From Candidatus Enterousia sp. (lineage in GTDB: Bacteria > Pseudomonadota > Alphaproteobacteria > Rs-D84), in NCBI GenBank assembly GCA_045613925.1, contig JAZLBV010000006.1:19224-83223 (forward strand): 64,000 bases of DNA, in the 5' to 3' direction. Each line of letters starts with the position of its first letter. The stretch's first letter is position 1. The notes beneath the pieces were generated by a model. It made no database searches. It worked only from the letters and a program-made list of their open reading frames with translations, and had not been told where the DNA came from. This document shows positions 3,610-35,880 of the stretch, in pieces. The translations under genes and the position numbers were made by a program.

Positions 3610-3626
3610 TAAAATAAAAAACAAAA

Positions 3627-3656
3627 CACCCCGCATTCAAAGCGGGGTATTTTTTT
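3627..3656. terminator. bidirectional intrinsic terminator hairpin
   Basis: accccgc-attcaaa-gcggggt stem-loop followed by a T-run, between convergent genes. Confidence 0.7.
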
Positions 3657-3669
3657 ATCATATATCATT

Positions 3670-5727
3670 TTATTTTACAGTTAATTCTTTGCCGTGAACG
3701 TCAACATCAACGGTTGAACCTTCGCCTATGGCACCAGATAATATCAAATCAGCGATTTTATCTTCCACAGCGGTTGTAATTAAACGCTTTAGTGGACGTG
3801 CGCCAAAGACTGCATCATATCCATTATCGCCCAACCATTTAATTGCCGCATCAGACACATGCATTGATATTTGTCGTTCGCCTAACCGTTTTTCTAATAT
3901 CTTCAATTGGATTTTTACTATGTCCCCCATAACATCTTTGCCCAATTGATTAAAGAATACTATTTCGTCGATTCGGTTGATAAATTCAGGTCTGAATTGT
4001 TTTTTCACTGCATCCATAGATGGCAAATTACTTGTCATTATGATAATAGTATTTGTGAAATTTACTATGCGACCCTGACCATCTGTTAATCGACCGTCAT
4101 CCAATATCTGTAAAAAGACATTAAATACATCTGGATATGCCTTTTCAATTTCATCAAACAATAAAACCTGATATGGTCTGCGACGTACAGATTCTGTCAA
4201 TTCCCCACCTGATTCATATCCCACGTATCCCGGAGGTGCCCCAATTAAACGCGCAACTGAATGCGGTTCCATATATTCAGACATATCTATACGTGTCATT
4301 GCTGTATCATCGTTAAACAAATATTGCGCCAAGGCTTTTGCTACCTCTGTCTTGCCAACGCCGGTAGGCCCCAAGAACATAAAAGAACCAGATGGACGAT
4401 GCGGATCAGACAACCCAGCACGCGAACGACGGATAGCGCGCGCAACAACTGACAATGCGTGATCTTGACCAACAACACGCTTACGAAGTTCGTCTTCGAT
4501 GTTTAATAATTTGGATTGTTCTTCAATCGACAATCTGTCTGCTGGAACCCCAGTCCATTTACTTACCACTGCCGCGATATGTTCTGGCAACACAGTTTTA
4601 TATTCTTTGGATTCGGTATTTTGTTTTTTGATTTTTTCTTCTAATTCTGGGATTTTACCGTATTGCAAAGCTGATGCTTTTTCATAATCCCCATTACGCA
4701 TAGCGATTGCAACTTCTGCCCGTGCTGCATCCAAAGCCGCCATAGAATCGGAAAGTCCGCGCATTTTTTCTTGTTCGTCTTTCCATTCGGCTGTCATTTT
4801 ATCGGATTCGTTTTGCAGTTTCGCAATTAAAGATTCCAAATCTTTTAACCGTTTTTGGGATTCGGTATCTTTTTCTTTTTTCAATGCCTGTTGTTCTATT
4901 TTTAATTGCATTAAATGACGATCTAATTCATCCAATTTTTCCGGCTTAGACGCTATTTCAATACGAACACGCGCAGCAGCTTCATCAATTAAATCAATTG
5001 CTTTGTCTGGTAAAAATCTGTCTGTGATATAACGATTAGACAATTTAACTGCCGCAACCAGCGCAGCATCCGCAATACGAACACCGTGATGTCCTTCGTA
5101 TTTATCTTTTAAACCACGCAATATGGATATAGTATCTTCAACCGTCGGTTCGTCCACATATACAGGTTGAAAACGACGTGCCAATGCAGGATCTTTTTCA
5201 ATATACTGACGATATTCATCTAAAGTTGTTGCACCTACACAATGTAATTCTCCGCGTGCCAACATAGGTTTTAATAAATTGCCAGCATCCATAGAACCTT
5301 CACCTTTACCTGCACCAACCATAGTATGCAATTCATCTATGAATAAAATAATTTCACCGTTTGAATCTTTAACAGCTTTAAGAATCGCTTTAAGACGTCC
5401 TTCGAATTGGCCACGAAACATTGCACCTGCCATCAAAGCGCCCATATCCAACGACAACAATTTTTTATTTAATAAATTCTCTGGCATATCACCAGATACA
5501 ATCCGCTGGGCCAAACCTTCTACTATAGCAGTTTTACCAACCCCAGGATTTCCAATTAACACAGGATTATTCTTGGTGCGACGTGACAAAACCTGAATCG
5601 TTCTGCGAATTTCTTCTTCACGTCCGATAACAGGGTCTAATTTTCCGTCTGCCGCCAATTTTGTAAAATCTGTTGTATATTTTTCAATTGCCTGTTGCGG
5701 TGTTTCTTGAACTTCTTCTGGATTCAT
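3670..5727 (-). CDS. clpB: ClpB-type AAA+ disaggregase lacking the N-terminal domain
   Basis: Two AAA+ modules ([18 protein letters not shown]; [17 protein letters not shown]) flank a coiled-coil middle region. The likely start is MNPEEVQ at 5727. The first Walker A begins about 60 aa from that start. Confidence 0.85.
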
Positions 5728-5893
5728 TTTTGATTCCTTTTTGATTTGTTTTTTCTTGTGCTTTTTATATAGTCGCATTTTTTTTAAATTCAAGCCATCG
5801 GACAATAAACCCAACAGATTCAAATTATAAATTGTATTGCGCAAATTTCTTTTTTAGTCTAGAATCAAAGGGAATATAATCAAAAGGTCTACA

Positions 5894-7342
5894 ATGATTT
5901 TTTCAGACAAAGATATTAAACAAATAAAAAACCACGGATTAAGCCTGGATGAAGTTAACGCACAAATAGAAAACTTTAATACAGGTTTTCCTGTTTTAGA
6001 TATTGTAAAACCTGCAGTTGCAGGCGATGGTGTCATACGGTGTACCCCGTTGGATTGTGAAAGATATATTGATACATATGAAAAATATGCTTTGTCTCAT
6101 AAAATTGTGAAATTTGTTCCTGCGTCTGGGGCTGCGACACGTATGTTCAAAGATTTGTTCGATTTTATCGCAACAAATATGCCAAATACGGTATCCAGAA
6201 TGACCGCAAATAATATTACAAAGTTCGCTTTTTGGGATGATTTAAAACAATATTTGCCGCAAAATGCATCTGATATGAATATCGCAGAATGTATTGTGAC
6301 CGCTTCAGGACTAAATTACGGCAATTATCCAAAAGGTCTTATCAAATTCCATAAATACCCAGAATATACAAGAACCCCTGTCGAAGAGCATCTTGACGAA
6401 GGCGCACAATACGCGATGTCTGGACGATCTGTGAATATTCATTTCACTATATCCCCAGAATATAGGGCTGGGTTCGAAGCTTTAATCAACAGCGTAATTC
6501 CGCAATATGAATCCAAATATGGTATGAAATACAACGTATCATTGTCAGAACAAAAATCATCTACGGATACAATTGCACTTCAAATGGATAAAAAACCGTT
6601 CAGAAACCCGGATGGCTCTTTGTTGTTCAGACCTGCGGGACATGGGGCTTTGATTGAAAATCTTAATGAAATTGATGCAGATTTGGTATTTATAAAAAAT
6701 ATTGATAATGTGATAATTGAACCTTTGCGTGGCGATACAATAAAACATAAAAAAATGTTGGCGGGGATGCTGGTTGACGTTCAAAAACAAATCTTTGATT
6801 TTGTTTCATATATAGATTCCGGCATAAATGTTGATACGGACAGAATCCATAATTTCATTGTCAATAATATCGGAATAAAATTAAAGAATAAATTGTCTTT
6901 GGGTGAATATAGAAATATTTTAAATCGCCCATTACGTGTTTGTGGCATGGTGAAAAATACTGGCGCACCAGGCGGTGGCCCGTTCTGGGTTCGTGAAAAT
7001 AATGATGTTATTAGTTTGCAGATTCTTGAATCCAGTCAAATTCCCAAAGATTCTAAAAACATGATGGACAGTGCTGAATATTTTAATCCTGTGGATTTAG
7101 TATGCGGCATCAAAGATTTCAGAAATGGAAAATTTAATCTTGCAGATTTCATTGATGGCAAGGCTGGTTTTATATCTGAAAAATCCAGAAACGGTATCGC
7201 GTTATTGGCAATGGAAAAACCGGGTTTGTGGAACGGTGCAATGGCAAAATGGAACACTATATTTGTAGAGGTTCCTGCTGATACATTTACGCCAGTAAAG
7301 GTTGTAACTGATTTATTATTGCCACCACATCAACCAAAATAA
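5894..7342 (+). CDS. DUF4301-like / UDP-sugar pyrophosphorylase-related protein
   Basis: 482 aa. KFVPASGAATRMFKDLF and RPAGHGALIENLN are reminiscent of UDPGP-type nucleotidyltransferases. The family assignment is from memory only. Confidence 0.4.
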   Translation: MIFSDKDIKQIKNHGLSLDEVNAQIENFNTGFPVLDIVKPAVAGDGVIRCTPLDCERYIDTYEKYALSHKIVKFVPASGAATRMFKDLFDFIATNMPNTVSRMTANNITKFAFWDDLKQYLPQNASDMNIAECIVTASGLNYGNYPKGLIKFHKYPEYTRTPVEEHLDEGAQYAMSGRSVNIHFTISPEYRAGFEALINSVIPQYESKYGMKYNVSLSEQKSSTDTIALQMDKKPFRNPDGSLLFRPAGHGALIENLNEIDADLVFIKNIDNVIIEPLRGDTIKHKKMLAGMLVDVQKQIFDFVSYIDSGINVDTDRIHNFIVNNIGIKLKNKLSLGEYRNILNRPLRVCGMVKNTGAPGGGPFWVRENNDVISLQILESSQIPKDSKNMMDSAEYFNPVDLVCGIKDFRNGKFNLADFIDGKAGFISEKSRNGIALLAMEKPGLWNGAMAKWNTIFVEVPADTFTPVKVVTDLLLPPHQPK

Positions 7343-7418
7343 TGCAAAAATAAAATCAGGACTTGACTTTTTACAATTTATATTATAAATTATTGCCCAG
7401 TAATTAAAGGATTTAGAT

Positions 7419-7793
7419 ATGCCTCGTGTATGTAAAGTAACTGGAAAAAAAACAATGGTAGGAATGAACGTTTCGCATTCTGAACGTCATACGAAGCGCA
7501 CATTTTTGCCAAATTTACAAAAATTATCCTTCCACAGTGATGCTTTGGCACGCGATTTCAGTTTGCGTATTTCGACTGCTGGGTTGCGTACATTGACAAA
7601 GCACGGTGGATTGGATGAATATGTTATGTCAAAACCTATATCGCGTTTGACACCTGAAATGGCTGCAATTAAGAAGGCCATTGAAAAGAAACAAGGCAAA
7701 GCTGCAAAACCTGCAAAAAAACCGGTTCATAAACCGACACGCAGTGCACGCCTTGTCAAAAAGGTTGAATCCAAGAAAGCGGCCGCTAAATAA
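7419..7793 (+). CDS. rpmB: 50S ribosomal protein L28 with Lys/Ala-rich C-terminal extension
   Basis: MPRVCKVTGKKTMVGMNVSHSERHTKRTFLPNLQ is the L28 core. About 45 extra K/A-rich residues follow at the C-terminus. Confidence 0.9.
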   Translation: MPRVCKVTGKKTMVGMNVSHSERHTKRTFLPNLQKLSFHSDALARDFSLRISTAGLRTLTKHGGLDEYVMSKPISRLTPEMAAIKKAIEKKQGKAAKPAKKPVHKPTRSARLVKKVESKKAAAK

Positions 7794-7815
7794 TCTGGCT
7801 GTTTGATTGTGTCCT

Positions 7816-7900
7816 GGCTCTGTGGCGGAACTGGTAGACGCGCTTGACTCAAAATCAAGTTCTGCAAGGAGTATCGGTTCGATTCCGATCAGAGCCACCA
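7816..7900 (+). tRNA. tRNA-Leu (anticodon CAA)
   Basis: GGCTCTG acceptor stem pairs with CAGAGCC. Anticodon loop is CUCAAAA. It has a long variable arm, a TTCGATT T-loop and an encoded CCA. Confidence 0.95.
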
Positions 7901-7908
7901 AAAATAAA

Positions 7909-7930
7909 ATGCCCTTTTGGGCATTTTTTG
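7909..7930 (+). terminator. intrinsic terminator
   Basis: atgccc-tttt-gggcat hairpin followed by a T-run after tRNA-Leu. Confidence 0.7.
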
Positions 7931-8035
7931 TTTTTCAAGTATCTTCTTTACCGTAATTATTTCAATTTATTAAAATAACATTGATTTTTGCGCACACTGT
8001 AATACACTGTCAAATAACCAAACAAAGGATTTTCA

Positions 8036-8599
8036 ATGAATTTTATCAAAACAGATATAGATGGTGTTGTTATTATTGAACCAAGAATATTTCCTGATTC
8101 GCGTGGATATTTTTTTGAAAGCTATAACGAACAAGAATTTATAAAAAACGGTATTCCGAATCGCTTTGTCCAAGATAACCAATCAAAATCATCATACGGT
8201 GTTGTGCGTGGTTTGCATTGCCAATTAGTTGCACAAGCCCAGGCTAAATTAGTTCGCGTATTGCAGGGCAAAGTTTTAGACGTCGCAGTTGATGTTCGCA
8301 AAGGTTCCCCAACCTTTGGAAAACACGTTGCCGTTGAATTATCCGACGAGAATATGCGACAATTGTTTATACCACGCGATTTTCTGCACGGATTTTCCGT
8401 TTTAAGCGACACCGCTGTTTTCGCCTATAAGGTAGACAATTTTTATAACAAAGAATCAGAATTTGGAATTCGTTATAATGACCCTGAAATCAATGTAAAT
8501 TGGCGTGTTCCTGTGAACAAAATAATAACGTCAGACAAAGACAGAATCGCAAATAGTTTGCAGGATTTGATAATAAAAAACTATCAATTTGAAAAATAG
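8036..8599 (+). CDS. rfbC: dTDP-4-dehydrorhamnose 3,5-epimerase
   Basis: DGVVIIEPRIFPDSRGYFFESYN ... VRGLHCQ ... GKVLDVAVDVRKGSPTFG is the RmlC cupin signature. Confidence 0.85.
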   Translation: MNFIKTDIDGVVIIEPRIFPDSRGYFFESYNEQEFIKNGIPNRFVQDNQSKSSYGVVRGLHCQLVAQAQAKLVRVLQGKVLDVAVDVRKGSPTFGKHVAVELSDENMRQLFIPRDFLHGFSVLSDTAVFAYKVDNFYNKESEFGIRYNDPEINVNWRVPVNKIITSDKDRIANSLQDLIIKNYQFEK

Positions 8600-8610
8600 G
8601 AAAAAAATAT

Positions 8611-8639
8611 TTGTAAAATCAATAAAAAACAGCTATAAC
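8611..8639 (+). promoter_or_regulatory. candidate sigma70 promoter for the TR-containing RNA
   Basis: TTGTAA (8611-8616), a 17-nt spacer, then TATAAC (8634-8639), immediately after the rfbC stop. Confidence 0.4.
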
Positions 8640-8645
8640 ACTTAT

Positions 8646-9100
8646 AAGGCAACAAAGTTTCCACGCCAAAACGTGGAAAAGGTCGCATTGTCGTACAGTT
8701 GTGTGTAGCGGTTTACGAGGCAGTTTTCTTGCGGTTTCGTTGTGGGTGTTCAACAACTCGAACAGCTCTACGTCCGAATGTGCGTCGAATTGCACGAACA
8801 ACTGTGGCAACAACGTCCAGAACAACTCGGACTTTCGCGCCGGCCTCTTCGGCTCTGTCGCTCCTTTGAAGGTGATAACTTTGACCAAAGGACAAAGTTT
8901 GGCTAACCTGCAGGACAAAGTGTAGATATAGACACTTTTCGGGTGTCAAGAAAACGACATCTGTTTTAAGGCCTTTCACATCAAAGGCGGGACGGTGTGA
9001 CCTGTCTTAACAAGACGAATACAAAACGCAGGGGATGTCTGGACTAGTAGTTTGCTCTGTATCACGACGAACGTCCTGGATATCCGATTAAACAAAGGAC
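8646..9100 (+). ncRNA. candidate DGR template RNA (TR plus structured spacer)
   Basis: About 450 nt that is markedly GC-richer than its surroundings, with no convincing CDS. Hairpins at 8658-8679 (tttccacg/cgtggaaa), about 8931-8947 (gacac/gtgtc) and ccttt/aaagg near 8970-8985. It lies directly upstream of ORF108 and the RT. Confidence 0.5.
8701..8870 (+). other. template-repeat (TR)-like segment; AAC-rich core at 8752-8826
   Basis: In the open frame starting at 8701, codons 18-42 hold 9 AAC and 1 AAT (FNNSNSSTSECASNCTNNCGNNVQNNSDFRAGL). The true boundaries cannot be set without a VR. Confidence 0.55.
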
Positions 9101-9104
9101 AAAT

Positions 9105-9431
9105 ATGACACTGGATGAAATTAAGCAATTAAACGAAAAAAATTATCCTAAATTTTCTTCGTTTGCAAAGAATCAGATGCCTATGCCCGGGAATAAAAAA
9201 CATCTGGATGATGTTTTAAACCGTGAAATCACGATTATCGATTACAGAATGCGACGTTCGACAAAACGTGATGGCACAGAGTGTCTGCAACTACAATTTA
9301 TACTGGATAACGAGGTTTGTGTTTTATTTACAGGCTCAAGTGTATTGACTAATCAAATCAAAGAAAGCAAAGATAATATCCCGTTTGTGACAACGATTGT
9401 TAAAATCGACAGATATTACTCTTTCTCTTAG
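9105..9431 (+). CDS. DGR-associated accessory protein, not Avd-like
   Basis: 108 aa with an AAAGGA RBS. The sequence looks beta-strand-rich (ITIIDYRM, CLQLQFILDNEVCVLFTG, FVTTIVKIDRYYSF). It sits between the TR-like RNA and the RT. Confidence 0.6.
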   Translation: MTLDEIKQLNEKNYPKFSSFAKNQMPMPGNKKHLDDVLNREITIIDYRMRRSTKRDGTECLQLQFILDNEVCVLFTGSSVLTNQIKESKDNIPFVTTIVKIDRYYSFS

Positions 9432-9451
9432 AACCAGTATAAAATTGTGTT

Positions 9452-10486
9452 ATGAAGACATATAAAAATCTTTGGGATAAATTTATCTCGAAAGAAAACT
9501 TTGATTTAGCAGCAAAGAAAGCGATAAAAAGTAAAAAATCTAAGAAATCAGTAAGGTTCTTTTTAAGAAATCGTGAAAAATTCTTAGAAAAATTACGAAA
9601 ATCTTTAATAAATGGCACTTTTAAAACATCGCCATATAAAACTTTTGTTATTTATGAGCCCAAAAGGCGAATAATTTACAAATTACCGCTTTATCCAGAC
9701 CACGTGTTGCATCACGCGCTTATCAATGTTCTGGGGCCGATTTGGCAAAGCTTCTTTATCAAAGACTCTTTTTCGTGCATTCCAGGGCGTGGTTTGTTGT
9801 ATGCTTCACGCCGTACGATGCGGTTTATCAAACGAAACAAATATGTTTTGCAATGTGATATTCGGAAATTTTATCCTTCCATAGATCATACTGTTATTAT
9901 GGATATAATCGCACATAAAATCCATGACAGACGCATGTTAAAAATATTAAATGAAGTCATCTGCTCTGTGGGTGGGCAAACTAATTTGCCGATTGGTAAT
10001 CTCACATCTCAGTGGTTGGGTAACGTTTATATGAATGAACTTGACCATTTTATAAAACAAGATTTACATTGGCGCGATTATATCAGATATTGTGATGATT
10101 TTTGTCTTTATGGGAATAACAAACAAGATTTGCACGATGCGGCTCAAAAAATAAAAACATTCGTCAGAGAACGACTAAAAATGGAATTTTCTAAATGCAA
10201 CCTGCGCAGGACATCAAACGGTGTTACCTTCATAGGATACAGGCATTTCAGAAAATTTATATTACTGCGTCATCTTACTGCGTGTAAATTACGCAGACGA
10301 ATCGTAAACATAATCGTGCACAGCGACTTCAGTGATCGTTCTGTTGCTCAATTGGCATCAGCATATGGATGGACCAAGTGGTGCAACAGTTATCATTTTC
10401 GAAAAACAATTCAGGTATTTGCGCGCAAAATTTCGCGGAAAGCTGGCGCTTTTATAAAAAGCAACCTTTTTTTTGACAAAAAATGA
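9452..10486 (+). CDS. DGR-type reverse transcriptase
   Basis: NLWDKFISKENFDLAAKKA, YEPKRRIIYKLPLYPDHVLHHAL, DIRKFYPSIDH, LPIGNLTSQWLGNVYMNELDHF, YIRYCDDF and FIGYR. It is colinear with Bordetella phage BPP-1 Brt as I recall it. Confidence 0.85.
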   Translation: MKTYKNLWDKFISKENFDLAAKKAIKSKKSKKSVRFFLRNREKFLEKLRKSLINGTFKTSPYKTFVIYEPKRRIIYKLPLYPDHVLHHALINVLGPIWQSFFIKDSFSCIPGRGLLYASRRTMRFIKRNKYVLQCDIRKFYPSIDHTVIMDIIAHKIHDRRMLKILNEVICSVGGQTNLPIGNLTSQWLGNVYMNELDHFIKQDLHWRDYIRYCDDFCLYGNNKQDLHDAAQKIKTFVRERLKMEFSKCNLRRTSNGVTFIGYRHFRKFILLRHLTACKLRRRIVNIIVHSDFSDRSVAQLASAYGWTKWCNSYHFRKTIQVFARKISRKAGAFIKSNLFFDKK

Positions 10487-10526
10487 AAAATTTTTTTAAA
10501 TGTTGTTTGGCTTTGAAAAAAAAATA

Positions 10527-10535
10527 TGATATAAT
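10527..10535 (+). promoter_or_regulatory. extended -10 promoter element (TGATATAAT)
   Basis: An exact TGnTATAAT about 20 nt upstream of the 10556 start codon. Confidence 0.45.
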
Positions 10536-10555
10536 GCATAGCAAGAGAAAGGGAA

Positions 10556-11329
10556 ATGCGTCATTTTAATAGGCAATTTTCATTGGTTGCGGCGGTTTTG
10601 TGTTTCGGCCTGGTATCTGGTGCGGATGCTGCGCCGTCTGTCCGTGTATTAGGATCATCTGCTGGCTCTTCGGTTGGAAAAACCACAGGGACTAAGGTTT
10701 CTGGGGCTAAGACTGGGAACACCATAAAATCATCTGTTTTGAACGCCAATACCGGTGTAAAGAAATCTGCGTCTGTAAAAACTATGTCGCCGACCACCAC
10801 AACTATGCAACCTGTGGCACGTACGTCGTCTGGTCGTGCTGGGACTGCTGGCACAGGAACCGTTGCGACTGTTGGTGGCGCGAATCGTTTCCCAGGAATT
10901 GCATCCAAAACCAACGTACAAAAATCTTATAGTCCGTCTGCAACAGGAACCATAATATCTACCGATCCAAATGCACGTAGCTATAATATGCAGGAAATGA
11001 GTGAACGTTTGGAAGTTTTGGAAGAAGACATCGTGTCTAAGGCGAAAAAAAACGATTTAGATAATTATTATACAAAAGACGAAATCAATGAAGGTTATTA
11101 CACTACGACCCAGGTTGATGAAAAAATAAACAGTATCAACACAGACATGTCGTCGCCGTATATGCAGGCATTGACTGAAAGTGTGCAAAGAAACACCGCA
11201 GATATTCTTACTCTTAAAGGTCAATATCAGTATATTTACGATATGGGCACTGGCGAAAAGAAATCTGTTTATCTGATAACTAATTTTGATGAAAGTTTGT
11301 TCTCTGACGAGACTGTTGTGGGGGATTAA
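10556..11329 (+). CDS. secreted fibre-like protein (Gly/Ser/Thr/Ala-rich N-terminal half, coiled-coil C-terminal half)
   Basis: Signal peptide MRHFNRQFSLVAAVLCFGLVSGADA. Low-complexity region. YYTKDEINEGYYTTTQVDEKI resembles tail-fibre motifs. Confidence 0.6.
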   Translation: MRHFNRQFSLVAAVLCFGLVSGADAAPSVRVLGSSAGSSVGKTTGTKVSGAKTGNTIKSSVLNANTGVKKSASVKTMSPTTTTMQPVARTSSGRAGTAGTGTVATVGGANRFPGIASKTNVQKSYSPSATGTIISTDPNARSYNMQEMSERLEVLEEDIVSKAKKNDLDNYYTKDEINEGYYTTTQVDEKINSINTDMSSPYMQALTESVQRNTADILTLKGQYQYIYDMGTGEKKSVYLITNFDESLFSDETVVGD

Positions 11330-11348
11330 GAAAACAAGGTAAAACGAA

Positions 11349-11771
11349 ATGAAAAAGATATTGTTTTCTTGTATGGCTTTATCAATTCTGACTGCGACTT
11401 CCGCGTTTGCAGATGGTGTTGCGTATGTCGTGACAAAACCTTATGTTGATGCAGGACTTCAGAGTGTGTATAACAAAATCAAATCCGCACAAAGCGATAT
11501 CGACGAATTAACTGTTTTTGTTGGTGCACCAACTGTTGGTGATATTCCTGGCACAGGGTTGGCGAAACGAATTGAACAATTAGAAGTTGGCTTGGTAAAT
11601 GCTAATAATCAATATTCTGGTGATGGTCGTGGTGTAATTGTCACGGACGATAATAAAATCGGAATTATTGGATTAAGTCAGTCTACGGGTGTTAACAATA
11701 AAATGTATGTTTTCCAAAATAATATCGCCACAGAACTTGAAGTAAAGGACACCTGGACCATAGATAACTAA
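11349..11771 (+). CDS. small secreted fibre-like protein
   Basis: Signal peptide MKKILFSCMALSILTATSAFA. VVTKPYVDAGLQSVYNKI is related to the YVKGAYN motif of the downstream paralogs. Confidence 0.6.
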   Translation: MKKILFSCMALSILTATSAFADGVAYVVTKPYVDAGLQSVYNKIKSAQSDIDELTVFVGAPTVGDIPGTGLAKRIEQLEVGLVNANNQYSGDGRGVIVTDDNKIGIIGLSQSTGVNNKMYVFQNNIATELEVKDTWTIDN

Positions 11772-11777
11772 GATTAA

Positions 11778-11801
11778 AATCCCACACATGGGATTTTTTT
11801 T
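11778..11801 (+). terminator. intrinsic terminator
   Basis: atccc-acacat-gggat hairpin followed by a T-run. Confidence 0.65.
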
Positions 11802-11808
11802 ATTTAAA

Positions 11809-11838
11809 ACCGATTCGTTTAACAGAATCGGTTTTTTT
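11809..11838 (+). terminator. second intrinsic terminator (accgattc family)
   Basis: accgattc-gtttaaca-gaatcggt hairpin followed by a T-run. A related hairpin recurs at 13072. Confidence 0.65.
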
Positions 11839-11973
11839 ATGCATCAATGCTATAAACTGGGCGATATAGGTTGCCAAGTTATGAAAGACCGAAAAATTCT
11901 GCATTTTTTCAAAAGTCAAGCAAAAAAATATTATAAATATAGTTTGACTGGACATAAAAAACAAAAAATTTTA

Positions 11974-11982
11974 TGATATAAT
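11974..11982 (+). promoter_or_regulatory. extended -10 promoter element (TGATATAAT)
   Basis: An exact TGnTATAAT about 30 nt upstream of the 12014 start. Confidence 0.45.
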
Positions 11983-12013
11983 AAATGCGTGAGAGAAAAA
12001 AACGAGGCTAAAT

Positions 12014-13051
12014 ATGAAAAGACTGTTAAGTGTTTCAATGTTTGCGATTGTTGCCGCGGCACCTGTTATGGCGCGCGCTGACAAAACAATAACATCGCTT
12101 GAATTGCAAAATGGTGGGAACGTTCCCGCTTCGACCCAGGTTGCAACAACATCATATGTTAAGGGTGCATACAACGCGGTTGCAAATGCGGTCAATGCTG
12201 TGGTCACAGATATGACTGTTGCAGACGGCGAATATACCCACATTAACCCAAACAAAAGCGTTGCTGAAAACTTGGTATTATTGAACAATGCAATTAACAG
12301 TGCGGGCACCACATCAAGCAGCACATATACAACCAAAGAATCTGCAGCTGCATCTTTAGCGACTGGCGCGGATACATTACATTACGTCAGTGCAGATGGC
12401 GAAAAGGTTGGCGCAAACCTTGGTGCATTGGACAAAGCTGTTTATGATAACGAAACTGCAATCGGGTTATTGAATTCTGGCGACACAGTCGAAGGTTCTG
12501 TTGCATATGCGGTTAAAGGCGAAGAAACCCGTGCAATGGCGGCAGAAACAGCGTTAAGCGATCGTATTGGAACATTGGATACGAATAAAAATTATTTACG
12601 GACTACAAACGACGTCTATACAAATATGACTGCGCTTGACACCCAGGTTCACAATAATGAATTAAGCATTGGTTCTTTAAGTTCGTTAAGCTCTGCTGGC
12701 AGTATGAACACAATTGAAAGTCGTGCAACATTGGTATCTGCAATCAATACATTGGATGCTGCGATTTCCAGCGCGGGAACTGCATCTAATGTGACGACCG
12801 GACACTATATCGGAACAGCAAACGGAAAAACATCTGTTTCTGCTAATTTAACGGCTTTGGATAACGAAGTCTATGATATTAACACCAACAAAATTGGTTC
12901 AGTTGATATGGGTACGACTGCAACAACCGTTACTGGCGCAATCAAGGAAATGCACGATCAACAGATTGAGGTTGCGACCACTTGGAACAGCAGTACTACT
13001 CAAAAGATTAATTTATTCCCAACTGCATCTGGCGATGACGATGGCGAATAA
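12014..13051 (+). CDS. secreted fibre-like surface protein paralog
   Basis: Signal peptide. VATTSYVKGAYNAVANAVNAV motif. The NLxALDxxV..N...IG motif occurs 4-5 times. Confidence 0.65.
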   Translation: MKRLLSVSMFAIVAAAPVMARADKTITSLELQNGGNVPASTQVATTSYVKGAYNAVANAVNAVVTDMTVADGEYTHINPNKSVAENLVLLNNAINSAGTTSSSTYTTKESAAASLATGADTLHYVSADGEKVGANLGALDKAVYDNETAIGLLNSGDTVEGSVAYAVKGEETRAMAAETALSDRIGTLDTNKNYLRTTNDVYTNMTALDTQVHNNELSIGSLSSLSSAGSMNTIESRATLVSAINTLDAAISSAGTASNVTTGHYIGTANGKTSVSANLTALDNEVYDINTNKIGSVDMGTTATTVTGAIKEMHDQQIEVATTWNSSTTQKINLFPTASGDDDGE

Positions 13052-13071
13052 TCTTTTGTAAAAGAAATAAA

Positions 13072-13103
13072 AAACCGATTCGTTCAACCGAGTCGGTTTT
13101 TTT
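13072..13103. terminator. intrinsic terminator hairpin
   Basis: aaccgattcg-ttcaac-cgagtcggtt flanked by an A-run and a T-run. Confidence 0.65.
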
Positions 13104-13343
13104 ATACATGAAAAAAAATTAAGCACCAATCTCTGTTTTTGATTCGCGGAACACAGCATATTCTGCCCCTTGGGGAAGTGGCACGTAGTGCCGAAGGGTG
13201 TTCACCGAATTGCGAATACACCGGAACACCCCACTCCGGCTGCGCCCACCCCCAACCATAAAAAACATACGAAAAAAAATAAAAAGTCAAGAGAAAATTT
13301 TCATAAAAAAATGTTTGACAAGCGTAAAAACACCCTTTTTTTG

Positions 13344-13352
13344 TGATATAAT
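13344..13352 (+). promoter_or_regulatory. extended -10 promoter element (TGATATAAT)
   Basis: Lies within cacccttttttTGTGATATAAT, about 55 nt upstream of the 13407 start. Confidence 0.45.
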
Positions 13353-13406
13353 ATGGTTATAAAATTGCTTAGCTTAGGGACGGCTATTTAAATGAGAGAG
13401 AAAACA

Positions 13407-14036
13407 ATGAAAAAATTATTAGGTATTTCTATCGTCGCTATGTTAGCCGTCACACCTATGATGGCAAACGCAGCGCAGACGGCTGCTAATTTAGCGGCAA
13501 CATCTGGTACCGAACAAAATGCTATTGCAACAACATCGTATGTTAAGGGTGCCTATAACGCAGTAAAAGCAGCGCACGATGCCGTTGTTTCCGATATTAC
13601 TGTTGGCAGTGGCACACATTATCATATTACAGCTGGCAACAGTGTTGCTGAAAATTTGGGAGAATTAGATACAGCAGTTCACCAAAATGATGAGAAAATT
13701 GGTACTATAACAACTTTACAGAGCAGCACCACATTTGGTCAGGACGAAGACCACAGCGACGTCGTTAATGCAATCATCAGTACAAAAACACAAGCTAACG
13801 CGACAGATGCTTTGGTTGGCAGTTCTGCATCATCATTGACAACCGAATTTGGTTCAGGTGTTGACACTGTTGATAAGGCTTTGAAAAAATTGAAAGAAGG
13901 GCTTGGTGCAACAGATAGCAAAGGCGTTGTTGTTTATAATGGTTGGAATGGCGGTGGCACACCAAATGGTAATGGTTGGGTCGGTTTGACAGCAGAACCT
14001 CAACAAACTGGTAGTGGTGAACAAACTGGTAACTAA
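13407..14036 (+). CDS. secreted fibre-like surface protein paralog
   Basis: The start at MKKLLGISIVAMLAVTPMMANA was chosen by identity with the 14434 paralog. IATTSYVKGAYNAVKAAHDAV motif. Gly/Asn/Trp-rich C-terminus. Confidence 0.65.
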   Translation: MKKLLGISIVAMLAVTPMMANAAQTAANLAATSGTEQNAIATTSYVKGAYNAVKAAHDAVVSDITVGSGTHYHITAGNSVAENLGELDTAVHQNDEKIGTITTLQSSTTFGQDEDHSDVVNAIISTKTQANATDALVGSSASSLTTEFGSGVDTVDKALKKLKEGLGATDSKGVVVYNGWNGGGTPNGNGWVGLTAEPQQTGSGEQTGN

Positions 14037-14057
14037 TCATTTAGATACAAATTTAAA

Positions 14058-14081
14058 ACGACCCATTTGGGTCGTTTTTTT
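14058..14081 (+). terminator. intrinsic terminator
   Basis: acgaccca-tt-tgggtcgt hairpin followed by a T-run. Confidence 0.7.
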
Positions 14082-14370
14082 GTTGTACCTGGCTTTGAAT
14101 CCTGTCCAAAAGAAAAAGCATCGGTATTTGTTTCTATTTTGCGATGCACCGCAACACAAAAACCAAACCAAAGTGCTTTATAATTAGAAACGAAATGCGT
14201 TTTATTGTCGCAGGGCTGGAAATAAAAAACAAAAATTTCTTTTCGTCGCGCACGCGGGTTCAACCAAGAAAAATCCCATAAAAAAACCGTCAGAAAATAA
14301 AAAAAATATAAAAGTCAAGAGAAAAATTTCATAAAACAACATTTGGCATTGGACTAAATCATAAAAATTA

Positions 14371-14379
14371 TGTTATAAT
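14371..14379 (+). promoter_or_regulatory. extended -10 promoter element (TGTTATAAT)
   Basis: A TGnTATAAT about 55 nt upstream of the 14434 start. Confidence 0.45.
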
Positions 14380-14433
14380 GTCAGAGTAAAAAATACTTGG
14401 CTTAGGGACGGCTATAAAAATGAGAGAAAAACA

Positions 14434-15543
14434 ATGAAGAAATTATTAGGTGTTTCTATCGTCGCGATGCTAGCCGTCACGCCTATGATGGCACACGCCG
14501 TGGGAAGTGCCCCAACGGCGGCGACCACATCGTCCGAACCATATTTGGGGGTTGATGTTGCGACGACTGACCAGGGTCATATTGCATCTACTGCGTATGT
14601 CAAGGGTGCGTATAACGCCGCGATTGGCGCAGTTAACGCGGTTTCAGCTGCAAAACAAAATAATTTGATGAACAACGCAGCAAGCCCTGTTGCCGTATCT
14701 AGCACTGTTAAGACAAGTGTTGGCGCTGCGACTGGTGAAAACGCTGCAGACAATACATCATTGGTAACTGAAAAGGCCGTCCGTGATGCGATTGATGCAA
14801 TTGAGGGCGCCGATGCAATCACAGCAGGTCCAGGTGTTAGCAAAACAAACAACAAGATTTCTGTAGATTTAACATCAAACGGCGGTTTGCAGACAACTGG
14901 TGAGGGTGATGCCGCTACATTGGGTGTAAAGGTTAACACTGGCACTATGGAAGTTGGCGCAGACGGTGTCGGAATCAAAGCCGGCGGTGTGGGCACAACG
15001 CAATTGGCAGATAACGCAGTGACAACTGCTAAGATTCTTGACGCAAATGTTACAGCTAATAAATTAGCAACAGATTCTGTAACGACCGCGAAAATCGCCG
15101 ATGGTAATGTTACAACTGCTAAGTTGGATGCAAGTGCCGTAACAACTGCGAAAATCGCTGACGCAAATGTAACGACTGGTAAGTTGGCGGATAGTGCTGT
15201 AGAAACAGCAAAAATCGCTAATGGGGCTGTGACATATAGCAAGTTGGATTCAGACTTGGTTCAAACTTCAGTTCGTTCATCGGTGGATAGTAATGCCGAA
15301 GGTTATAGTGCTTGGAATTCTGATCAAACTGTCGCATCTGAAAAAGCGGTCGCGACTGCGATTTCTACGGCTACAACAGGTATGGCGACACAAACTGGTG
15401 TGAATTCTGCTATTGCAGCGTCCAGCGTTTCTGTAACATCTGCAACTGTGGATGTCTATAACGCTTGGGGTGCAGAAACTACAACCCCTGTTAATGCCAA
15501 TGTGACCGTAGACTTTACAGCGGGTACATATCCAAATAATTAA
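14434..15543 (+). CDS. secreted fibre-like surface protein paralog with 11-residue tandem repeats
   Basis: Signal peptide MKKLLGVSIVAMLAVTPMMAHA. IASTAYVKGAYNAAIGAVNAV motif. About 8 copies of an xxVTTAKIADxN-type repeat. Confidence 0.7.
   Translation: MKKLLGVSIVAMLAVTPMMAHAVGSAPTAATTSSEPYLGVDVATTDQGHIASTAYVKGAYNAAIGAVNAVSAAKQNNLMNNAASPVAVSSTVKTSVGAATGENAADNTSLVTEKAVRDAIDAIEGADAITAGPGVSKTNNKISVDLTSNGGLQTTGEGDAATLGVKVNTGTMEVGADGVGIKAGGVGTTQLADNAVTTAKILDANVTANKLATDSVTTAKIADGNVTTAKLDASAVTTAKIADANVTTGKLADSAVETAKIANGAVTYSKLDSDLVQTSVRSSVDSNAEGYSAWNSDQTVASEKAVATAISTATTGMATQTGVNSAIAASSVSVTSATVDVYNAWGAETTTPVNANVTVDFTAGTYPNN
14983..15252 (+). repeat. in-frame 33-bp tandem repeats (about 8 units) encoding (A/N)VTTAK(I/L)ADxN
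   Basis: GVGTTQLADNAVTTAKILDANVTANKLATDSVTTAKIADGNVTTAKLDASAVTTAKIADANVTTGKLADSAVETAKIANGAVTYSKLD. Confidence 0.8.
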
Positions 15544-15553
15544 CATAAAATTT

Positions 15554-15598
15554 GGTCTGGACAATTATGTTGTATTCGTATAACATAATTGTCAGACC
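15554..15598. repeat. long imperfect inverted repeat (about 17-bp arms)
   Basis: ggtctggacaattatgtt ... aacataattgtcagacc between two paralogs. No T-run follows it. Confidence 0.6.
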
Positions 15599-15651
15599 GG
15601 GTGGGAAAGGAAAAAATTCAATCTTTATCAAAAAAAATTAATAAAAATTAC

Positions 15652-16224
15652 ATGAAAAAACTTTTATTCATTTTTCTTGGTTCGATCTTAGTTACACCTG
15701 CGTTCGCATTGGGCGAAGAGCAGGAAACGCCGGCAATTACTCAGTTTATAAGCCCGACGACTGCAAGCGTCCAGGATTCTGCATCTGTGTCTGCAAACGC
15801 GCCTAAGTATGATTTGAATACTATTACTACAACCGACCAGGAACATATTGCGTCGGCTGCGTATGTTAAGGGCGCACACAACAGCGCACTTTCCGCTATC
15901 AATTATTTACAGGGTTCTAAACAGGCGCAATTGGTTAATGATGCCGCGTCGCCTGCTAATGTTTCCAATACAGTGAAAACAACGTTGGGAACAACATCCA
16001 CCGCCAGTGATACTGCGTTGGCATCCGAGTTAGCGGTGGCGACTGCGTTGTCTGAGAAACAGGCCACATTGTCAAGCACCAATGTTACAACATCTGGTAC
16101 GGGCGCTGTTGTTACAGGCGTCAGTGCATCCGGTGGTAATGTTACGGTTACAACGGGTCAGGTCACGATTCCGGTGGGCAGTGTTTCGTCGCCTACATCC
16201 CAGGCACAAATTTGGGTACAATAG
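15652..16224 (+). CDS. secreted fibre-like surface protein paralog
   Basis: Likely start MKKLLFIFLGSILVTPAFA. IASAAYVKGAHNSALSAINYL motif. Ser/Thr/Val-rich C-terminus. Confidence 0.6.
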   Translation: MKKLLFIFLGSILVTPAFALGEEQETPAITQFISPTTASVQDSASVSANAPKYDLNTITTTDQEHIASAAYVKGAHNSALSAINYLQGSKQAQLVNDAASPANVSNTVKTTLGTTSTASDTALASELAVATALSEKQATLSSTNVTTSGTGAVVTGVSASGGNVTVTTGQVTIPVGSVSSPTSQAQIWVQ

Positions 16225-34878: not shown

Positions 34879-35044
34879 TATTTTGTCCTTGTTTATTTAT
34901 GCGTTGCACGCGATAATGAAAACGACCTTTGGTGCTTTCCGTCCGCCTTCGCCGTCCTTAAAAAACAATATATGTTCCAAGAATTTATTGGGCTACGGCG
35001 GGACACTCGATTTTCAATCCTCGCTTCGCTTCGGTGAAAATCGG

Positions 35045-35120
35045 TGGTGTCCCCAGCAGAATTCGAATCTGCATCTAATCCTTAGGAGGGATTTGTTCTA
35101 TCCAATTGAACTATGGGGAC
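35045..35120 (-). tRNA. tRNA-Arg (anticodon CCU)
   Basis: Reverse complement GTCCCCATAGTTCAATTGGATAGAACAAATCCCTCCTAAGGATTAGATGCAGATTCGAATTCTGCTGGGGACACCA. Confidence 0.95.
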
Positions 35121-35267
35121 CGAACGCGGTTGATTCTACATCAATAAAAAAATAAATCAAAATATTTATTACAAAAATACGTGTTCTTGGGCAATCGACA
35201 AAAAACCAGAAAAAATAATTGCAATCTGGCAAAGAACTTTTATAATTATTAAAAACAAGGGTTCTTG

Positions 35268-35555
35268 ATGGCGACCATTACACGTATTGATTTGGCAAAT
35301 GTTTTAAGAAACCGTTTTGGTTTAACTACGTCTGATTCCTATAAAATGGTGGATATTATTTTTGACGAAATCGAACAATCGCTGATTCACGGCGAAGATG
35401 TTAAGATTTCAGGATTTGGAACATTTAAAATATTGGCTAAGTCCGCACGTGTTGGACGTAATCCAAAAACTGGGATTCCGGCGGTGATTTCTGCACGTCG
35501 TGTGGCAACTTTCCGCCCAAGTCGTGAATTCAGAAATATTGTTTCTGGAAAATAA
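35268..35555 (+). CDS. ihfA: integration host factor subunit alpha (HU/IHF family)
   Basis: ITRIDLANVL ... ISGFGTFKILAKSARVGRNPKTGIPAVISARRVATFRPS. Confidence 0.85.
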   Translation: MATITRIDLANVLRNRFGLTTSDSYKMVDIIFDEIEQSLIHGEDVKISGFGTFKILAKSARVGRNPKTGIPAVISARRVATFRPSREFRNIVSGK

Positions 35556-35579
35556 TTAATCTATATCAAGGGGACAAAA

Positions 35580-35846
35580 ATGGCACAAGAATTACAATTA
35601 GACATTTTTGAAGAACAAAGAAAAGATGATATAGCCGAAGAAATCAACAGTTATGAAAAAAAGAAATCTGAATTAACAGCAGAAAGGGATGCAACAGAAC
35701 AAAGGTTGCACGATGATGACCTTTCCTGGCAGGACAGAAAAGAATATCAAGATGACCTGCAAGATTACCAACGGGAACTTGAATCATTGGAAAGATCGCA
35801 CAAAAGAACATTAGATGAACTGTACGCAAAGCAGTATAATATTTAA
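35580..35846 (+). CDS. acidic coiled-coil hypothetical protein
   Basis: 88 aa, rich in Glu, Asp and Gln, with a GGGGA RBS. Confidence 0.45.
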   Translation: MAQELQLDIFEEQRKDDIAEEINSYEKKKSELTAERDATEQRLHDDDLSWQDRKEYQDDLQDYQRELESLERSHKRTLDELYAKQYNI

Positions 35847-35856
35847 AAAAATTTTA

Positions 35857-35875
35857 ACCGCCCGATTGGGCGGTT
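35857..35875. terminator. bidirectional terminator hairpin
   Basis: aaccgccc-gatt-gggcggtt between convergent genes. The same stem sequence recurs at 50675. Confidence 0.6.
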
Positions 35876-35880
35876 CTTAA

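Follow-up and report, generated by a model that had tools for sequence, protein, structure and literature searches.

What kind of element is a reverse transcriptase (RT) gene that lies on a bacterial chromosome behind a GC-rich non-coding stretch and a 108-aa open reading frame (ORF), with no recognizable target gene in the 64 kb around it? The question is raised by positions 8611-10486 of a 64-kb stretch of Candidatus Enterousia DNA, here called the window. Judged from the sequence, we consider it about 80% probable that this segment forms the core module of a diversity-generating retroelement (DGR) on the chromosome of a Candidatus Enterousia-type gut alphaproteobacterium, with the target outside the 64-kb window. 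DGRs are, to our knowledge, the only natural system for targeted protein hypermutation in prokaryotes. The module consists, in this order, of a putative promoter, a 5' hairpin, the template repeat (TR), a structured spacer RNA, the gene for a 108-aa OB-like protein (ORF108) and the RT gene (Table 1). The data support a DGR-type RT that has a TR-bearing non-coding RNA and a small ORF in front of it and resides on the chromosome rather than in a prophage. Membership in the DGRs follows from the window RT, the TR and the family context; the window alone contains neither a pair of TR and variable repeat (VR) nor a target.

Table 1. Features of the proposed DGR module (window coordinates).
Feature	Coordinates	Strand	Properties and basis
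Promoter-like element TTGTAA-17-TATAAC	8611-8616 and 8634-8639	+	Consensus-like match; putative RNA start near 8646
5' stem-loop of the putative DGR RNA, UUUCCACG-CCAAAA-CGUGGAAA	8658-8679	+	9 pairs
TR core	8731-8861	+	131 nt, 27 adenines, 55.7% GC; homologous to TRs of relatives with cognate VRs
Structured spacer RNA, about 245 nt	8862-9104	+	3' of the TR, up to the start of ORF108; covariation
Accessory gene (ORF108)	9105-9431	+	108-aa basic protein (pI 8.6) with OB-like beta-barrel model; conserved RT neighbor
DGR-type RT gene	9452-10486	+	344 aa, intact; RVT_1, bRT match, YCDD, IGNLTSQ

The RT ORF matches Pfam RVT_1 (E = 3.9e-15), and the best match among all PDB chains is 8ub7 (E = 4.5e-43), a 328-aa chain deposited as 'Reverse transcriptase', which we take to be bRT, the DGR reverse transcriptase of the Bordetella phage. 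Residues 2-315 of the window RT align with residues 3-314 of this chain and are collinear with it over 313 residues. The next PDB matches are group II intron RTs, at 3e-18 and worse, and retron RTs, at 1e-3 and worse; among the PHROGs, phrog_1423 ('Reverse transcriptase') matched with E = 3e-94. The protein contains the blocks NLWDKFISKENFDLAAKKA, YEPKRRIIYKLPLYPDHVLHHAL, FYPSIDH, LPIGNLTSQWLGNVYMNELD, YIRYCDDF with the catalytic YCDD, and LASAYGWTKW, and residues 181-187 read IGNLTSQ. The motif [I/V/L]GxxxSQ sets DGR RTs apart from retroviral, non-LTR and group II enzymes, which have QGxxxSP (PMC7826257). Two residues of bRT that were shown to promote adenine mutagenesis, Arg74 and Ile181 (PMC7826257), align with Arg73 and Ile181 of the window RT, and both are invariant in 28 RT homologs. 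An earlier note on this DNA had recognized the 344-aa ORF as a DGR RT by its motif set, with SQ in place of QG, and as collinear with Bordetella Brt. Every block that it quoted was found again, IGNLTSQ included, and the alignment with bRT indeed runs from end to end. The comparison with profiles of other RT families that it had envisaged also agreed, with bRT as the best match and the retron, group II and Drt models below their cutoffs.

Those other families nevertheless deserve weighing, since an RT with a structured non-coding RNA, a small partner protein and no target in view would also suit a retron, a group II intron or an Abi, UG or DRT system, in which the upstream RNA would be msr/msd-like or a DRT RNA. 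Partial matches to such families were indeed obtained (group II, 1e-29; UG17, 6e-26; retron St85, 1e-19; Drt3a, 2e-15). However, matches to the NCBIfam models for group II maturases, retron RTs, AbiA and Drt2-5 cover only part of the protein and stay far below the cutoffs, with 103.7 bits against 300 for TIGR04416, 70.6 against 235 for retron St85 and 56.9 against 200 for Drt3a. The full-length match to bRT is 25 orders of magnitude ahead of the next, the signature is IGxxxSQ and not QGxxxSP (PMC7826257), and searches found no group II intron RNA (Rfam) and no maturase or endonuclease domain. Moreover, RTs of the same clade are accompanied by TR/VR pairs that differ at adenines only. A non-DGR origin is therefore extremely improbable, and on sequence grounds the RT is to be placed among the DGR enzymes rather than those of retrons, group II introns or UG/DRT systems.

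At E ≤ 1e-10, 2204 homologs of the RT were found, the named ones being from metagenome-assembled genomes (MAGs) of 'Alphaproteobacteria bacterium', and one (P0001) is 100% identical to the window RT. The closest loci in a genome scan were in Candidatus Enterousia MAGs from rumen, gut and feces. Loci of relatives are designated by L numbers and homologous proteins by P numbers. Three Enterousia MAGs have two separate RT loci of the clade each, namely JAZSAG01 (L025 and L069), JAZSNY01 (L027 and L078) and JAFURB01 (L036 and L055), which means that one genome can carry more than one such DGR.

The proposed template lies in a 505-nt gap (8600-9104) without an ORF of at least 100 aa. With a GC content of 44.6%, against 37.6% for the window, it is the most GC-rich of the six gaps of at least 300 nt defined in this way, which bears out the GC-rich non-coding stretch described in the earlier note. 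The AAC-rich core that the same note reported is also present: the frame that enters at 8701 and continues through the TR core has 10 AAC codons and one AAT among 75. The final ~35 nt of the core contain no A, are GC-rich and resemble IMH*, and may act in the initiation of mutagenic homing (IMH).

That this segment is a template became apparent from the relatives. In L001 and L002 (RT 67% identical), the TR is present in two copies. In L001 these are located at 9278-9410 and, 496 nt upstream, at 8782-8914; all 10 of their mismatches fall at adenines of the RT-proximal copy, and the upstream copy forms the end of a gene for a secreted protein. VRs were then sought in 80 genome loci by lenient blastn and an adenine-tolerant scan. 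A stretch of at least 2.5 kb upstream of the TR was available in 42 Enterousia-type loci, and 37 of these have a VR with adenine-only mismatches to the TR. The VR usually precedes the TR by 0.3-1.9 kb on the same strand; in some loci it is downstream or inverted. The TR of L096 and the VR of L098 differ at 12 positions, all of them TR adenines. The window TR differs from the VRs of L093 and L097 at 18 and 17 positions, respectively, 14 of which are A in either case; the remaining differences are strain-level changes of a kind also seen between the window TR and L095. Comparison of TRs with each other gave a different picture, with four differences between window and L095, none at A, and 21 between window and L096, only two at A. 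Adenines are thus kept in templates and scrambled in targets, which is the hallmark of DGRs. The upstream segment, TR-like according to the earlier note, is accordingly homologous to TRs that have adenine-only VRs in relatives.

Open frames on both strands of this segment, some of which were called as genes in databases (P0121, P0122), allow the reading that it is a small protein gene, either the 74-aa ORF at 8701-8925 or one of the antisense ORFs of 88-99 aa, rather than an RNA template. Yet the only homologs of these ORFs are read-throughs of other TRs, no family matched, and the ORF boundaries are not conserved in relatives. The frame itself is that of the target's C-terminus as copied into the TR, and the part downstream of the TR shows base-pair covariation. 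The conserved protein gene that the earlier note had set against its own interpretation was thus not found, the conservation being RNA-like, and a coding function is hardly credible.

The targets in the relatives are secreted, Cys-rich proteins of ~165-216 aa for which no Pfam family was found. The VR is at their C-terminus and ends 3-9 nt before the stop codon. DGRs may have a hairpin or cruciform shortly behind the VR that serves in recognition of the target; in L098 and L094 the VR is followed by a GGGCCG-9 nt-CGGCCC hairpin that has no clear equivalent in L093 and L097 (z-scores -2.2 to +1.0). Very GC-rich palindromic repeats, e.g., CTCCCCCAWTGGGGGAG, were observed just downstream of VRs (L098:500-790, L001:7400-8500 and 9100-9130); in these otherwise AT-rich genomes they give rise to spurious proline/glycine-rich ORFs on both strands, and none were seen in the window. 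A further observation in L001 concerns a 156-aa paralog of the target, encoded just upstream of it (7642-8112), which shares the signal peptide and HCWC motif but is unlike the TR at its C-terminus. Perhaps this paralog is a former target that has decayed or is not diversified.

The spacer that follows the TR was found next to an RT in 76 loci with nhmmer. In the window, its minimum free energy (MFE) structure has -73.7 kcal/mol (z = -3.4). RNAalifold on 64 spacer sequences predicted 25 pairs, 17 of which show compensatory double changes. When the MFE structure of the window spacer was mapped on the same 64 sequences, 77.7% of the cells were paired, as compared to 32-47% when the partners were slid by 1-3 columns, and 41 pairs had double changes. 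The covariation score was 0.208, against 0.148 for shuffled alignments, and was reached by none of 500 shuffles. The several hairpins mentioned in the earlier note are thereby confirmed by more covariation among relatives than expected by chance. In the predicted fold, CCUGC/GCAGG closes a multi-helix junction, and a 12-bp helix, GGGGAUGUCUGG/CCUGGAUAUCC, comes after it. The closing stem is paired in 100% of the sequences and the 12-bp helix in 97%, with 9 of its 12 pairs covarying; helices 5, 6, 7 and 11 are 91-100% paired and two hairpins 91-97%. An outer helix (helix 1) between the TR 3' end and the ribosome-binding site of ORF108, suggested by the single-sequence MFE, was poorly supported (46% of cells paired) and was rejected.

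No Rfam family matched the spacer. In the DGR of Bordetella, bRT-Avd is recruited by a 144-nt spacer (Sp) behind the TR, whose residue A56 supplies the 2'-OH for priming, and bRT alone is inactive, requiring both its protein partner and Sp RNA (PMC6182149). By analogy, the spacer in the window element would have the role of the Bordetella Sp. TR and spacer together are 89% identical between the window and L012, while the collinear, mostly coding block around them is ~77% identical; the TR-spacer module appears to be under selection.

The candidate for a protein partner of the RT is ORF108. The classical partner, Avd, is a four-helix bundle (Pfam 23S_rRNA_IVP, TIGR02436). The 108-aa protein gave no match in Pfam, NCBIfam, PADLOC or PHROGs, and a profile of 33 homologs found no chain at E up to 10 among the PDB sequences, which presumably include Avd chains. 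Its AlphaFold2 model (pLDDT 91.9) starts with a short strand, followed by strands 41-51, 59-67 and 70-76, a helix at 79-91, and strands 94-101 and 104-107, i.e., a beta-barrel with one long helix and not an all-helical bundle. As profiled and modeled, ORF108 is not Avd and belongs to a different protein family. An OB fold is a five-stranded closed beta-barrel with a helix between strands 3 and 4, and the top PDB fold matches of the model in Foldseek are all OB domains (RuvBL domain II, HIN, RPA and SSB), although weak (E ≥ 0.05, TM ~0.4). The best matches in BFVD are viral proteins annotated as RT (E 1.6e-6 and 3.5e-6, TM 0.65-0.72), and two weaker ones are annotated as ssDNA-binding proteins (E ~4e-3 and 1.3e-2).

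A homolog of ORF108 adjoins the RT in 75 of 80 related loci, either upstream or downstream. The Enterousia loci have the gene between spacer and RT. Where the RT is 40-46% identical, as in the distant loci of Melainabacteria, Clostridia, Veillonellaceae and Spirochaetia, the gene comes directly after the RT; the one distant locus inspected (L080) is prophage-like. Searching 1.84 billion representatives with the ORF108 profile returned 863 clusters (371 at E ≤ 1e-10), nearly all of them stand-alone proteins of 95-110 aa. The family is mildly basic (pI 8.1 ± 1.0). On the other hand, P0222 (507 aa), P0316 (414 aa) and P0292 combine an N-terminal RVT_1 with a C-terminal ORF108 domain. P0316 is 38% identical to the window RT, has the motif IGNYLSQ, and its last 97 residues are 38% identical to ORF108. 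Among annotated phage genomes, homologs occur only in two archaeal viruses, ANMV-1 and a Methanosarcinales virus (BK063673.1). Because the linkage extends across phyla, occurs in two gene orders and includes natural fusions, a functional partnership of ORF108 with the RT is very likely.

Four classes of DGR accessory proteins have been described, namely Avd, HRDC, the MutS-like MSL (112-283 aa) and CH1 (160-169 aa, pI 4.7) (PMC5758913), and judged by these descriptions ORF108 does not fit any of them. A search of the literature, limited to open-access text, gave no paper on an OB-fold DGR accessory protein or on Enterousia DGRs, which is no proof of absence. The protein family, together with the covarying spacer RNA in Enterousia-type loci, looks new. 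It may be a widespread unnamed class of DGR accessory protein, in which an OB-like nucleic-acid-binding partner, sometimes fused to the RT, replaces Avd in a large RT clade that spans gut Alphaproteobacteria, Melainabacteria, Clostridia, Spirochaetes and archaeal viruses (ANMV-1). In Enterousia-type loci the protein would then work with the conserved structured spacer RNA. We put the chances of this interpretation at slightly less than even.

At the 5' end of the module, the promoter-like element recurs at the equivalent position in L095 (TTGTAA-17-TATAAC), in L096 and L012 (TTGTAA-17-TATAAA) and in L001 (TTGCAA-17-TACAAT). Matches of at least 9 out of 12 positions, 40-170 nt upstream of the TR, were present in 11 of 61 relatives and in 1 of 61 control windows; most of the 11 belong to the nearest relatives or lack an adjacent VR. 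With only 11 of 61 loci, conservation of the promoter throughout the family was rejected. The stem-loop downstream of it, listed by the automated scan as a terminator-like site on the minus strand, shows a compensatory change in L012 (CCACG/CGTGG to CCATG/CATGG) and has a counterpart at the matching position in L001; it may play a role in the DGR RNA.

Several results weigh against the proposed interpretation. No VR was found in the window on either strand by direct-repeat searches, adenine- or thymine-tolerant scans or lenient self-blastn, the best VR-like matches in the scans being at background level (about 60-70% at non-A positions). With the target proteins of the relatives as queries, tblastn against the window returned the TR itself only and no target homolog. 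A protein search with the TR-encoded peptide gave two TR read-through ORFs and no VR protein, in a database that includes the RT of this contig. The promoter postulated in the earlier note is present in sequence and at the coordinates given there, but it was not listed by the automated promoter scan and is not conserved family-wide; it is a consensus match only, kept in near relatives. Finally, the Foldseek search of the ORF108 model against PDB produced no significant match, and the OB-like barrel is drawn from a predicted model with the weak PDB matches described above.

The lack of a VR or target anywhere in 64 kb is the oddity of this DGR, and the earlier note had missed it. The array of fiber-like genes downstream was considered as a target and rejected, as it contains no VR-like sequence. 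A target would be located more than 8.7 kb upstream or more than 53 kb downstream of the module. One explanation is that the DGR is an orphaned remnant, which lost an adjacent target upon rearrangement beside rfbC, no longer diversifies anything here and is kept by drift or for another role. The failed searches for a VR, a target homolog and a VR protein would fit this, and incomplete DGR cassettes are reported to be frequent in some lineages, with 66 of 91 crAss-like genomes having incomplete cassettes or only some DGR elements (PMC7290462). The state of the module argues otherwise. Both ORFs are intact and are retained with the same layout in a second species (L012; RT 82% and ORF108 84% identical), the TR-spacer segment exceeds its flanks in identity as noted above, and TR adenines are preserved between lineages. 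An orphan would also leave unexplained the cognate VRs with A-only differences that were found on other contigs for both sub-lineages, as set out below.

Evidence that a remote target is a real state of this sub-clade comes from L012, which represents a different Enterousia species. L012 is collinear with window 3616-10782, a block that includes ClpB, DUF4301, L28, rfbC, TR, ORF, RT and beyond, and it has no VR within 6.8 kb upstream and 11.6 kb downstream. The rfbC-TR junction is the same as in the window in the metagenome contigs L095 and L096. TR/VR repeats are known to break or confuse short-read assemblies, and several contigs of relatives start inside the TR; a collapsed repeat might in this way have joined rfbC wrongly to the TR, the real layout being target(VR)-TR-ORF-RT. 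However, the junction, including the 130-nt promoter/hairpin segment, occurs in four independent assemblies (window, L012, L095 and L096) from different samples and species, which argues against misassembly, and the sequence upstream of the TR core is unlike that upstream of the VRs. An artifact is very improbable. Since rfbC abuts the module in all four, the target is non-adjacent in this sub-clade. Within the clade this is a minority state: a local VR is missing in 5 of the 42 loci (L012, L025, L044, L058 and L091), in addition to the window.

For the remote VRs, JGI metagenomes were scanned with 45 nt of the TR core over which the window and L012 agree completely, each A being allowed to match any base. 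The scan yielded two TRs, L095 (window-type) and L096 (L012-type), and five VRs. The L096 TR, on a 33-kb contig, and the L098 VR, on a 141-kb contig, are from one metagenome; the VR gene in L098 has as neighbors grpE, tpiA, a ppiD-like gene, recO, a dsbA-like gene and polA, none of which is in the window. The window-type VRs in L093 and L097 form the ends of two different secreted proteins. These two targets (L093:79-261 and L097:449-1099) occur in one metagenome; one has the usual CWCKMTHP context, and the other, of 216 aa, begins with an unlike N-terminal part (GYTFNGW-type repeat). One TR may serve several targets here, or the two may stem from different strains. The presence of two architectures with the same VR type in one metagenome suggests several targets. 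As for the contig breaks, the short-read contigs L003, L004, L006, L008 and L010 (RT 70-88% identical) start in the A-free 3' end of the TR, at the equivalent of window ~8824-8830. Breaks inside the TR are typical of a repeat, as expected with a second copy, and hint indirectly at a VR elsewhere in those genomes.

The occurrence of cognate VRs on other contigs suggests an element that works in trans, its target being located beyond the window. Loss of the target is unlikely, and this genome would still have one; the window would then hold one half of a split DGR, consisting of TR, accessory gene and RT, and the target would be non-adjacent.

From these data and the Bordetella system a mechanism can be proposed. 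The TR-spacer RNA would be transcribed from the promoter at 8611-8639, probably along with both genes. RT and the 108-aa protein, which would take the place of Avd, would bind the spacer and form a ribonucleoprotein (RNP), in line with bRT-Avd-Sp, the gene linkage and the natural fusions. cDNA synthesis would be primed from the spacer, and the TR would be copied with random misincorporation opposite adenines. This step is shown indirectly, by VRs of relatives that differ from their TRs only at adenines and by the conserved bRT-equivalent residues. The mutagenized cDNA would replace the VR at the 3' end of a distant gene, whose product would be a small secreted Cys-rich protein with ~40 diversified C-terminal residues.

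How does this element compare with known DGRs? The best reference is the mtd-avd-TR-brt DGR of Bordetella phage BPP-1, whose bRT-Avd-RNA structures are presumably those in PDB entries 8ub7-8ube. The two share a collinear RT with IGxxxSQ and the R74/I181 equivalents, a TR of ~130 nt rich in AAC codons and, in relatives of the window element, adenine-only VR changes. Both also have a structured spacer between the TR and the downstream gene, which in Bordetella measures 144 nt and contains the priming site (PMC6182149). They differ in that the window module has the OB-like ORF108 product between spacer and RT instead of Avd, the module being the part of the window that was scanned for Avd. Furthermore, the window spacer is longer (~245 nt) and similar to no Rfam model, the locus is chromosomal and not in a phage, the target is non-adjacent, and the targets of relatives are small secreted Cys-rich proteins rather than a tail-fiber tip.

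DGRs without Avd have been described as Lineage 3, with the order target-TR-RT (Wu et al. 2018, PMC5758913), and also in the crAss-like phage LMMB (PMC7290462); an Avd-independent variant of mutagenic retrohoming was suggested (PMC5758913). The window clade resembles Lineage 3 in the absence of an avd gene from the cassette and in the order target, TR, RT in most relatives. It differs in the conserved small gene beside the RT, which means that the window cassette is not accessory-free. The DGR of ANMV-1 (KP703175), the first one described from archaea (PMC4372165), has a homolog of ORF108 that adjoins the RT (AJP62065.1, 98 aa, 40.6% identity, E = 5e-15; KP703175.1 36106-36402, L099), annotated in GenBank as 'hypothetical protein'. 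A figure in that paper labels one small ORF 'Avd', and which one is not evident from the text (PMC4372165). ANMV-1 differs from Enterousia in having the homolog directly behind the RT, an adjacent, phage-tail associated target (adtA) and an archaeal host.

Non-adjacent targets are known from Treponema and others, in Lineage 4 and its neighbors, which have Avd (PMC5758913). The window element is like these in that a TR-RT module is set apart from the VR gene(s) on a chromosome and not on a phage, but here the separation arose in a clade where an adjacent target is the norm. The earlier note had called the order TR, small ORF, RT unusual. The order is as it described, yet it is normal within the clade, occurring in most of the 75 loci that have the ORF, and it is one further variant beside the 48 DGR cassette architectures that have been cataloged (PMC5758913). 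With remote targets, Avd-less cassettes and many gene orders on record (PMC5758913, PMC7290462), the layout is a known kind of variation.

The surroundings of the module agree with the earlier note, which had placed it between rfbC and surface-fiber genes. Upstream is rfbC (Pfam dTDP_sugar_isom, E = 4e-71), and secreted fiber-like genes follow the RT. The latter, from 10556 to 16224 and beyond, include at least six paralogs, all of which encode a signal peptide and a conserved 'TSYVKGAYN' motif; repeats (families D1, D2, D4 and D5) cover their 5' ends and the regions upstream. The 369-aa member at 14434-15543 matches PHROG tail-fiber families (E = 9e-19), and the closest relatives (L007-L012) have conserved the array behind the RT. 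Farther away, 34879-35880 is a 1-kb region without an ORF of at least 100 aa and includes a tRNA gene on the minus strand (35048-35120). The ClpB ORF at 3670-5844 (minus strand) is listed with a TTG start and has ~39 extra N-terminal residues relative to the 685-aa call in L001; translation probably begins at the internal ATG (MNPEEVQ...).

Taken alone, the window gives a more modest result: a well-supported DGR core module whose target is not visible. Its wider meaning lies in the family. Mechanistic knowledge of DGRs comes almost wholly from the Bordetella bRT-Avd-RNA complex, and a large RT clade that is linked to a small protein other than Avd offers a testable alternative RNP for the 'Avd-independent' retrohoming postulated in 2018. 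If the accessory-class interpretation is true, some DGRs regarded as 'accessory-free', or as 'Avd-like by size and pI', would use another RNP architecture for priming and adenine mutagenesis. The shift from adjacent to non-adjacent targets took place within a single genus-level group, made up of gut and rumen bacteria with small genomes, and bears on how modules and targets are matched in trans. For Candidatus Enterousia, the likely products of diversification are a family of small, secreted, Cys-rich proteins.

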